A DNA stretch of 64,000 bases from Bdellovibrionales bacterium (GTDB lineage: Bacteria > Bdellovibrionota > Bdellovibrionia > Bdellovibrionales > UBA1609), in NCBI GenBank assembly GCA_041690295.1, contig JAWLHR010000004.1, positions 114,031 through 178,030 on the forward strand, written 5' to 3'. Below the pieces are notes generated by a model, which had not been told where the DNA came from, made no database searches, and worked only from the letters and a program-made list of their open reading frames with translations. Each line of letters opens with the position of its first letter. Position 1 is the first letter of the stretch. A program made the translations under genes and the position numbers. This document shows, piece after piece, positions 1,173 to 7,292 of the stretch.

Positions 1173-1536
1173 GCGAATCCTGCTCCTGAATTTCTGGGAT
1201 ATAGCAGGTCTTGCAGCCCCCTGGATTTCCGCCATCACAGGCCGGCCGCGAGCAGGCCAAATGGATCAGGGAACCATCGGAGAGAACGAGGTTGCCGGCC
1301 AAGGCTTCTTCGAGGAGTTCCAGCTCTTCGAGGATGCTGGAAATCGTTTGAGGTTCATAGGAATCGGCAACGACTTTTAGACGCAGAGCGGGATAGCGGT
1401 GATTTAAATCCGCCGTCCAGGACCGGACCATTTTCACATGGTCCGTGGAGCTAATGGGTGTATCGATATGTAAACTCGCCGAAGCGAAACTCCCCCAAAA
1501 GGCAACCGCCACTAATATTGCCGCATGCCGACCCAT
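1165..1536 (-). CDS. Small secreted hypothetical protein with Cys-rich C-terminus
   Basis: Signal peptide (…SFASA), GGAG RBS, C-terminal CSRPACDGGNPGGCKTC. Confidence 0.65.
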   Translation of the reverse strand: MGRHAAILVAVAFWGSFASASLHIDTPISSTDHVKMVRSWTADLNHRYPALRLKVVADSYEPQTISSILEELELLEEALAGNLVLSDGSLIHLACSRPACDGGNPGGCKTCYIPEIQEQDSLR

Positions 1537-1771
1537 GTAACTCTCCCGTCCTGGAGGGCGCTTTCCCCCTCAACCCGTGGAAACGACAATTCAAATCCAA
1601 GGCCAGCGGATTTTGAATGTTTTCGGTGTCGTCGTGGCCCCGAACGTCATTGATTTGATATTCGGGAATTGGAGCGCCGGTGTAATTGCGCACCGTTTAG
1701 GACAAAATGATCCCAGCACGCCTTGGCCCGCAGGTGACAAGTCCGGGCTGGTTGTCTAGCTTGGATGCTTA

Positions 1772-4184: not shown

Positions 4185-4838
4185 TCAATCGCGAGAAGCC
4201 GTCATGAGTTTTTTGATTTGGCGATACTCTTGTTCCATAAAGAGTTCGGCCCTTGGATTGGAATTTCGCACTCGTGTGATCAGTCGTCGCGCATGGTCGT
4301 AGCGGTGATGACGGATCAACATCCTGACATAATTACGGATTACGGGAAGTTGAAGAGATTTTGATCGGCTTTCGAGGATGGCTTCGAAAAATCGACTGGC
4401 CTCTTCGGCTTGACCTAATTCTGACAGAGCGAGCGCGTAAGAATACATGGCTTCAAGATCACGACCCCCGCGTTTGAAATAAATCGCGAAACTTCGCGCG
4501 GCCCGATCCAATTTGGCACGTTTGAATTGGAGTTGCCCTAGCCGTAAGTATTGTTTCGGGTCATTCTTGGCGATTCGCTCCAGTTCATTTTCCACACAGT
4601 CCCAATTTTTGAGATCCGTGCACATGGCGGCCTTTTTCTCCCAATCGGCGGGCGTGGTTTTTCCGACCCAGTCTTTGACGGTGAGGGGAATGATCTCCAA
4701 CGCGTATTTATCCCAATTAATGATATGTACGGCGGTTAAAATGATGAAACCGGTGATAAAGAGCATCACCGTCATGCTTAATCGTTCAAGTTCTTCTTCA
4801 ACTTCGCGTCGCTTTTTATTGTCGTTCAAGTTGTACAC
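4185..4838 (-). CDS. Membrane-anchored TPR-like protein
   Basis: One TM helix then TPR-like helical repeats; GTG start at 4838 with AAGGAG RBS. Confidence 0.7.
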   Translation of the reverse strand: MYNLNDNKKRREVEEELERLSMTVMLFITGFIILTAVHIINWDKYALEIIPLTVKDWVGKTTPADWEKKAAMCTDLKNWDCVENELERIAKNDPKQYLRLGQLQFKRAKLDRAARSFAIYFKRGGRDLEAMYSYALALSELGQAEEASRFFEAILESRSKSLQLPVIRNYVRMLIRHHRYDHARRLITRVRNSNPRAELFMEQEYRQIKKLMTASRD

Positions 4839-4953: not shown

Positions 4954-5193
4954 CGTGGGACGCTTTTGGGCACCGGACAATGGACTGCCGCCCGGGTGAG
5001 AACCCGGGAACTCGGACTGGCAGGTGAAAGGGGAGATGTTTTTAAGAGATCGCCCGCCTCCCCTTTCGAAGAGGCGAGCGGACAGGAGGGCCGCAAGTCC
5101 TTCCTGGACTCACGGTCTGTTGGGTTGGTTCATGCGTGAGACCATCCAGGTCTCGACGAACCAATGAGCAAGTCGTGTTCCTAAATATCCACG
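4954..5193 (+). ncRNA. Candidate structured non-coding RNA (unassigned)
   Basis: Intergenic; ends pair (4954-4978 with 5172-5193); internal hairpins with GAGA and GCAA tetraloops plus further stems. Confidence 0.5.
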
Positions 5194-5270
5194 CTGATCG
5201 GTGAGTTGACATTTCTTTACGATTTTTCAAAGTGACTGGTGGGGAGCGCCTGAGTTGAAATGGAAGCTGA

Positions 5271-6092
5271 ATGAGCGTTGTTAAACTTTTGTTCGAATTT
5301 GGAAAAAAAGTGCAAGGCCGTGTTCGGCATTTCCTTTTCTCCAGGGTGGTGACGACAATTGTCCTTTTTGTGATTCTCGCCCCACCACCGGCATTGGCCG
5401 ATGCCGATTTAAGTTTAGGCGGTAGCTTCAGATCTTATCCCTTAAGTGGAGTGGCGGAAGTTAAATCCGGCTATGGAATGGTTCTCTACGGCCAAAAGAA
5501 TTCCCCGTTCTCCGGTTACATTCGTCCGGCTTTGGAAGGGTACTCCGCGCTCCTATATAATTCCGGGATCGCCAAACTTGAGATTTTCCCTTTGGCCATT
5601 TTAGGCGCGCGCGCCGGCGGTGAAAGTATCCAAAACGACAATGAATACACCGCCTATGATTGCAAAAAATATCGCTGTTTGGGCCGCAACTACCGTACGT
5701 TCTTTGAAACCGAACTCACCTTGGGCGCGGGTCCTTTCTTTATTCAGGGGCGTTGGCGGCGTGAGCGGTGGACGCAACCGGATCCCGAAGCCGGTGATTT
5801 CGTCGATCCCACATCCGGTTTGCTGATGAAATCACAAGGGGAGTCGCAAACGGTTTATACCGCGGTTTCCGGAGTTAAACTTTCTCCGACATGGACCGTG
5901 ATGGCGGGTTTGCGCTATGCCGAGGATGAGGATGGAATTTCGCGAATGCCCTTCTTGCTGCTCAGCTGGAAGAATTCGAGTTGGACGGTTTCCGCGGGCG
6001 GCGGCGGTTTTGAGTCGTCACTTAAAGATCGGAGCGCGACGGCTCTGCTTTCAGTGACCTGGGAGATCCTCCCCAGCGTAGCCCTCCGATGA
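5271..6092 (+). CDS. Hypothetical exported protein, probable outer-membrane beta-barrel
   Basis: Signal-like segment ending PALA, alternating aromatic beta-strands; true start may be downstream of 5271. Confidence 0.65.
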   Translation: MSVVKLLFEFGKKVQGRVRHFLFSRVVTTIVLFVILAPPPALADADLSLGGSFRSYPLSGVAEVKSGYGMVLYGQKNSPFSGYIRPALEGYSALLYNSGIAKLEIFPLAILGARAGGESIQNDNEYTAYDCKKYRCLGRNYRTFFETELTLGAGPFFIQGRWRRERWTQPDPEAGDFVDPTSGLLMKSQGESQTVYTAVSGVKLSPTWTVMAGLRYAEDEDGISRMPFLLLSWKNSSWTVSAGGGGFESSLKDRSATALLSVTWEILPSVALR

Positions 6093-7262: not shown

Positions 7263-7292
7263 GGAGTATCCGGTGAAGCAATCGTTGTGCCG

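Follow-up and report, generated by a model that had tools for sequence, protein, structure and literature searches.

The intergenic DNA at about 4954 to 5193 of the window, by which we mean the whole stretch of 64,000 nucleotides that was analysed, raises the question of what kind of element lies there and from which strand it acts. The initial annotation had proposed a structured RNA of about 240 nt with segments resembling the specificity domain of RNase P, and had left its strand in doubt. Our analysis indicates that the element is very probably a genuine structured RNA and that it is encoded on the minus strand. The genome under study, of 2.88 Mb and 99.9% complete, carries it in the gap that separates a TPR gene on the minus strand from a plus-strand gene without Pfam match. 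The features of the locus are as follows.

4185..4838, minus strand: TPR-repeat protein gene with Pfam TPR matches, the downstream neighbour
4985..5023, minus strand: second hairpin CUGCC...GGCAG, as a rule with a U-rich stretch behind it
5026..5035, minus strand: CUCCCCUUUC, with a CUUUC that could pair to the loop of P3 if transcription reads through
5044..5080, minus strand: terminator-like P3 hairpin of 12 bp, GC-rich, its loop of the GAAA type and its U tract weak
5081..5090, minus strand: single-stranded CCCUCCUGUC, anti-Shine-Dalgarno-like, mean unpaired probability 0.81
5091..5115, minus strand: P2 hairpin with the CsrA-type loop C[AGGAA]G
5121..5130, minus strand: single-stranded AACCAACCCA, conserved, mean unpaired probability 0.92
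5138..5154, minus strand: P1 hairpin, loop UGGAU in this genome
5044..5156, minus strand: predicted sRNA, short form, about 113 nt, its start placed 12 nt past the C of the -12 box
5166..5182, minus strand: predicted sigma54 (-24/-12) promoter, GG at 5181-5180 and TTGCT at 5171-5167
5271..6092, plus strand: divergent neighbour gene without Pfam match

Structure and strand of the conserved element

The predicted RNA comprises three hairpins, with single-stranded AACCAACCCA between P1 and P2 and a further single strand, containing CCUCC, between P2 and P3. The predicted short form is 111-117 nt long in 18 of the 19 genome copies and 136 nt in G013, which has an inserted hairpin, again with a C[AGGAU]G loop. 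In an unfitted alignment of 16 sequences, 90% of the cells pair and 10 of 27 pairs have changed on both sides (0/500 shuffles; slid controls 1-5), and in an alignment of 19 sequences fitted to the covariance model, a procedure that leans towards structure, the corresponding values are 95% and 15 of 27 (0/500 shuffles; slid controls 3-5). These copies come from close kin, so the counts are not independent of one another. Each of the three stems shows covariation. Two-sided changes are found in 5/5 pairs of P1 in the model-fitted alignment and 3/5 with MAFFT, and in 6/10 pairs of P2 in the model-fitted alignment and 4/10 in the unfitted one. The hairpin at 5051-5080, which forms part of P3, was noted at the outset and is conserved in homologues with 98-99% of the cells paired, the value for P3 in the model-fitted alignment being 98%. 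The single strands are also kept, with CCAACCC in 19/19 copies, the full 10-mer AACCAACCCA in 17/19 and CC(C)UCC at 5081..5090 in 16/19. At least one GGA loop is present in every one of the 19 copies. The P2 loop holds GGA in 18/19, unpaired at p>=0.98 in all 18, and matches CAGGA(U/A/C)G in 15/19; the remaining copy, G009, has the loop AAGAU. In P1 the loop holds GGA in 11/19 copies as compared with 3.7% of shuffles, and the strict form A(N)GGA in 8/19, this genome not among them. The two GGA loops lie about 41 nt apart, the distance being 39-43 nt in nine of the ten copies that have both.

Several lines of evidence bear on the strand. One pair of P3, read on the minus strand, is U-G in 13 copies, C-G in three and U-A in three, and the plus strand would put a C-A mismatch at this position in 13/19, so that the wobble pairs favour the minus strand. 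On that strand the hairpins are followed by U-rich tails, and the wobble pairs, the putative promoter described below and the U tracts all favour it; the doubt first expressed about the strand was justified. Folding energy is no guide here, as the minus (sense) strand is the more stable in only 10/19 copies. Against shuffles, the fold of a 271-nt region gives modest z values of -1.6 on the plus and -2.8 on the minus strand; for the redefined piece of 113 nt on the minus strand z reaches -3.7, and none of 200 shuffles folds as well. The terminator scan of this genome called no terminator at the element and no sigma70 promoter was called there. The U tract of P3 is strong in G032, G132 and L351.

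All stems that had been listed from the single sequence can be found in this genome, and their fate in homologues differs. The CTGCC/GGCAG hairpin is kept in 16/17 copies of the genus and, over all copies, is missing in G015, G032 and G132; it is likely a back-up terminator, with no U tract in this genome. From the two pairings put forward as mutually exclusive, a core of 5-7 bp survives comparison (GAAAG/CUUUC on the minus strand) in 14 of the 16 copies with the second hairpin. In G011 both sides of this loop-tail pairing differ (AGUGA/UCACU), and its per-genome shuffle p is 0.01-0.27, each case alone being weak. The terminal pairings CGTGG/CCACG and GGGCAC/GTGTTC are not conserved, their flanks being unalignable with only 4-7 bp pairings in unrelated registers, nor is TTGGTTC/GAACCAA, seen in 2/19 copies. 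The CAGGAGGGCC/GTCCTTCCTG stem has no two-sided change, and a different, covarying stem (5091-5115) sits in its place. Two further candidates, a CAGGA/UCCUG stem from RNAalifold and a long-range UUGCU/GGCAG pairing in which UUGCU belongs to the promoter, were discarded as they have no two-sided changes. The extent of about 240 nt at 4954-5193 had mixed promoter DNA with RNA; the conserved part of the predicted transcript runs on the minus strand from about 5156 to 5044, and conservation as a whole spans about 5044-5182 plus the second hairpin.

According to the reading first suggested, the element would be transcribed from the plus strand as a relative of the RNase P specificity domain, with tRNA elbows as its ligand. 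In this one genome the order of short words does recall J11/12-P12-J12/13, the words for J11/12, J12/13 and L13 being those we assume for the comparison, and the genome's own rnpB also appears by eye to be without GGUGAAAG. However, RF00010 has no match at the locus at E<=10, where its sole match in the genome is the full-length rnpB on contig C22 (198.7 bits), which answers the proposal to look for a canonical gene elsewhere. The T-loop-like words are mostly not conserved, with GGTGAAAG in 2/19 copies and TAAGAG in 5/19 anywhere in the region, and the strand evidence points the other way. Two of the words have another reading, GAGCAAG being the reverse complement of the sigma54 -12 box and TGAAAG the antisense of CUUUCA, which can pair with the hairpin loop. 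The RNase P reading is thus largely refuted, and we regard it as extremely unlikely. The rnpB gene itself lies at L001, 1501-1849, on the minus strand, and the GGUGAAAG that it appears to lack is usual in the specificity domain.

The other part of the original proposal, that this is an unrecognised ncRNA, has held up: the stems are conserved and covary in relatives, as the suggested check on syntenic homologues was meant to reveal, and an Rfam scan of the window at gathering thresholds gave no match, a local scan at E<=10 giving only two matches of chance level. The housekeeping RNAs rnpB, 6S, SRP and tmRNA are all encoded elsewhere in the genome, and the element was therefore rejected as a missing 6S, SRP or tmRNA. 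A short AUG frame is present, but it is broken by indels across copies as judged by eye, and a leader peptide was likewise rejected. The sRNA family is apparently undescribed, with the eight attack-phase sRNAs of PMC3627812 lying outside the sequence comparison; a literature search returned no description of it, and the supplements of motif-discovery papers could hold one. Separately, ARAGORN reports a 'tRNA-Stop' with anticodon TTA at G000 C15:56317-56407.

Predicted promoter, distribution and genomic setting

Upstream of P1 the 19 copies share two short boxes, with G-24 in 19/19, G-25 in 18/19, C-21 in 18/19 and TTGCT in 19/19, and the GG-N10-GC spacing is fixed in all 19 while the bases between and around are variable. 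We take these boxes to be the -24/-12 pattern of sigma54, and the predicted start falls at P1 or a few bases before it. A genome-wide control of the spacing is consistent with this assignment. At the spacing of the element the pattern is non-coding in 23 of 32 matches, 16 of them 20-200 nt before a gene; at four other spacings it is non-coding in 3-6 of 21-32, with 0-3 of them 20-200 nt before a gene, non-coding DNA making up 14% of the genome by our own crude gene caller. The genome encodes rpoN and 16 matches to sigma54 activators, 12 of them strong. A sigma54-type promoter sequence thus appears to precede the RNA, its start site being a prediction. Farther upstream, at about 5205-5235, A-tract-like repeats (TGAAA/TGTAA) recur in phase at distances of about 10 and 21 bp, as they do in homologues, and may mark a site of DNA bending or activator binding. 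Elsewhere in the genome many sigma54-type promoters lie before genes with signal-peptide-like product starts, not before flagellar genes; one of them is in the window near 7292 on the minus strand, before a 403-aa ORF.

The RNA family is confined to two genera among the genomes sampled. The covariance-model search among 109 genomes of the family brought the genome copies to 19, namely that of the genome under study and those in 16 of the 17 other genomes of the genus and in both genomes of a second genus. By BLASTN, copies were detected in 15 of the 17 other genus genomes and in none of 43 other relatives, and one further copy, L351, comes from metagenomes. No copy was found in G017, which is 77% complete. 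Covariance models recovered none beyond the two genera in 151 genomes of the order and 151 of the phylum; all seven weak matches that were examined are partial, and L047 is likewise only a partial match. A pattern search matched in 60 of 401 genomes, and none of 30 pattern loci from other genera scored with the model. True copies numbered one among 119 metagenome pattern loci (a scan of 26 of 64 parts) and 0 among six viral ones, and no RNA copy adjoins the neighbour gene at its 24 loci in other genera. One weak model match of 18.5 bits, from a distant family (G238, L055 at 1501-1652, plus strand), shows a TTGCTC box, a 5' part led by GAGGC and a similar final hairpin without the conserved middle.

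The neighbours of the RNA are not constant. The divergent gene without Pfam match adjoins it in 17/17 loci of the genus and in 0/2 of the second genus, and the TPR gene lies about 200 nt behind it, in the same orientation, in 12/19 loci, two loci ending too soon. In G009 a convergent thioesterase gene follows the RNA, in G010 and G014 the downstream genes are different and in G032 it is a transglycosylase, while in G031 both usual neighbours are present with no RNA between them. The changing neighbours and the convergent gene in one copy suggest that the element, which has a promoter-like sequence of its own, is probably transcribed by itself as a small RNA of about 113 nt, although its terminator is weak in this genome. 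Alternatively, it could belong to the TPR gene as a 5' leader or attenuator whose read-through would depend on CsrA binding or on the P3 loop-tail pairing; the same-strand gene in 12/19 loci, the weak U tracts in this genome and the conserved loop-tail complementarity would all fit. We consider this improbable, if less surely so for this genome, since the RNA is followed by a convergent gene in G009 and by other genes in G010, G014 and G032, and the TPR orthologues of G017, G031, G032 and G132 have no adjoining RNA. Moreover, the tail is synthesised later than P3 and so cannot act as its antiterminator. As to the TPR protein of the window (4185-4838, minus strand), it appears to be without the N-terminal cysteine-pair motif of several orthologues.

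A predicted CsrA-binding decoy and its alternatives

What the small RNA may do is suggested by its loops. CAGGA(U/A/C)G is the repeat of CsrB (PMC7652899), and AGGAX five-base loops closed by C-G are among the solved RsmE sites (PMC4005645). In this genome csrA is present beside fliW, and the two are also adjacent in 5/5 other genomes checked. A strict search of non-coding DNA found 136 NGGAN hairpins with stems of at least 5 bp, and two such hairpins no more than 80 nt apart at only two places, the element being one; a looser loop definition gives 15 hairpin pairs in the genome. From these features we predict a stand-alone sRNA that binds CsrA through its GGA hairpin loops under a sigma54-type promoter, a prediction that in our judgement has about an even chance of being right. 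An enhancer-binding protein would switch the promoter on, and the transcript would end at P3 or read through to the second hairpin. A single CsrA dimer would be bound by P2 and, where its GGA is present, by P1 about 41 nt away, and CsrA would be drawn off the GGA-rich leaders of flagellin and other genes, relieving translational repression. The RNA would in this way serve as a second input on CsrA beside FliW. The unpaired AACCCA beside the P2 stem, as in one flagellin leader, may add specificity, and the CCUCC stretch may pair with ribosome-binding sites, in which case the RNA would be dual-functional in the manner of McaS. A separate pair of AGGAC-loop hairpins, about 36 nt apart and before a 44-codon ORF, was seen at G000 C15:39865-39920 on the plus strand (L131, about 1465-1520). 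One of them is identical to P1 of two homologues, the whole RNA not being homologous, and the pair is possibly a CsrA-controlled leader or a second Csr-type RNA.

Some findings weigh against CsrA binding. Only the GGA loop of P2 is near-invariant, CCAACCC, the sequence conserved best of all, does not correspond to a known CsrA element, and csrA is also present in G031, which is without the RNA. The binding of five-base loops is reported to be 10-1000-fold weaker than that of six-base loops of the ANGGAX type (PMC4005645). In the flagellin leaders of the genus most GGA hairpins are of the six-base kind, and the RNA would therefore compete poorly unless it is abundant or bivalent.

Some flagellin leaders resemble the RNA in a further respect. 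Of seven flagellin paralogue groups, one has AACCCA no farther than 24 nt from the hairpin in 12 of 14 rows (one looks mis-binned), as compared with a background of 24 among 4886 hairpins (0.5%); a second group has AACCC in 9/14 and the other five have none. We estimate the chance of such a likeness somewhere among the leaders at about 1 in 10, and regard it as no more than suggestive. The fullest version of the decoy proposal, a minimal RNA for one CsrA dimer under sigma54 control in a FliW host, sharing the AACCCA-plus-GGA signature of a flagellin leader and with short and long forms linked by the loop-tail pairing, is tentative and on the whole doubtful. The leaders themselves (G000 C11:32968, C11:31645, C11:37350, C11:36153 and C2:177750, all on the minus strand; L132-L171 and L214-L239) carry conserved motifs without Rfam match, namely a CUCCAACGUGUU stretch before the GGA hairpin, hairpins with a GAGUAGGU loop, CUGCUGAAA...UCUGUGGGC before a divergent flagellin gene, and GAGAGGUAA. 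Several of these persist in other genera, and they are candidate new cis-regulatory RNAs.

The loops and the CCAAC-type repeat might instead be read by another RNA-binding protein, one that recognises NNGAY five-base loops together with CCAAC as in the flagellin leaders, and for which the RNA would be a decoy or scaffold. P1 loops without GGA mostly keep GA near the 3' side of the loop, the P2 loop of G009 is AAGAU, and one flagellin leader keeps its CCAAC-type sequence in G031 as well, despite the loss of its GGA hairpin there. P2, however, is close to the CsrA consensus in 18/19 copies and no candidate protein was found, and we think such a protein quite improbable.

A different possibility is that the RNA acts by base pairing independently of Hfq, with CCAACCC and CCUCC as seeds that block ribosome-binding sites and with GGA either incidental or a site for CsrA as chaperone. 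In its favour, the two stretches are conserved as well as unpaired, Shine-Dalgarno sequences are complementary to CCUCC, no Hfq was found in the genome, and the build is like that described for Pxr, with sigma54, three stem-loops and no Hfq (PMC5684412). The target scan over 2964 rough gene starts, taken from our own crude caller, argues against it, as neither stretch clearly beats its shuffles: the best value is -25.4 for the first stretch against -24.1 to -27.3 for shuffles, and -23.0 for the second against -19.1 to -22.3, its tenth-best being no better. TGGGTTGG occurs near 0 gene starts as compared with 2.9 expected. The top target was a dksA-like gene; its locus was read in 17 genomes that carry the RNA, and by eye only about 2-3 of them keep the extended pairing, so that this target was rejected for want of conservation. 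The C-rich stretch also matches an apparent 16S rRNA over 8 nt, a match that is broken in several copies and was taken as chance. In our view base pairing as the main activity is unlikely. Upstream of the dksA-like gene (L093-L122) several members of the genus have a CCCUGUCC-like leader stretch, which could pair in cis with the ribosome-binding site of that gene; most of these genomes have two dksA-like genes.

Relation to known regulatory RNAs

The current view is that CsrA is restrained by sRNAs in Gammaproteobacteria and by FliW elsewhere, and a 2020 review (PMC7652899) calls it open whether the two kinds of antagonist operate jointly in any one species. In Bdellovibrio bacteriovorus CsrA has been implicated in predation, and its control is described as little known (PMC13443453). 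If the predicted CsrA binding is true, the RNA would be a dedicated CsrA-titrating sRNA in a bacterium that also uses FliW. Such a short RNA can be synthesised, and with recombinant CsrA the question is testable without culturing the organism. The scope is two genera, whose named records are metagenome-assembled genomes, and the RNA was not found in the other genomes of the phylum sampled. If it is an ordinary base-pairing sRNA, it would be a new lineage-specific family and little more.

Among known RNAs, type A RNase P RNA (RF00010) shares only a few short plus-strand words with the locus in this one genome, and differs in that there is no model match, the strand is wrong, a catalytic domain is lacking and the real gene lies on another contig. 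Pxr of myxobacteria (RF01812) is likewise about 110 nt long, with three stem-loops, a predicted sigma54 promoter and a predatory host without Hfq (PMC5684412). However, RF01812 has no match in the genome at E<=10, and PMC5684412 makes no mention of CsrA. In Campylobacter, where antagonising sRNAs are absent, CsrA is titrated by the flagellin mRNA itself (PMC4894983). The flaA leader of C. jejuni resembles the element in having two GGA hairpins for one CsrA dimer in a CsrA-FliW organism (PMC4894983); it differs in that the antagonist there is part of an mRNA and its six-base loops are separated by 21 nt, whereas here the antagonist would be a separate RNA, with five-base loops at a distance of about 41 nt.

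McaS and GadY of E. coli are small RNAs with at least two GGA motifs that bind CsrA and with a capacity for base pairing (PMC7652899). Unlike them, the element has no Rfam match, no Hfq was found in its host, and its second GGA is only partly conserved. The likeness extends to CsrB/CsrC and RsmX/Y/Z of Gammaproteobacteria, which share with it the short hairpins with CAGGA(U/A/C)G or AGGAX loops, an A/C-rich linker, a terminal hairpin, a CsrA in the genome, and GGA in the loops of conserved, covarying hairpins (here P2 in 18/19 and P1 in 11/19). In contrast to about 18 sites in CsrB or eight in RsmZ there are one or two here, with no Rfam Csr/Rsm match, a sigma54-type promoter, FliW in the host and the additional conserved CCAACCC and CCUCC stretches. 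By site number and homology the element thus falls outside the Csr/Rsm families, and by its predicted mode of action it would work like the Csr/Rsm sRNAs or McaS.
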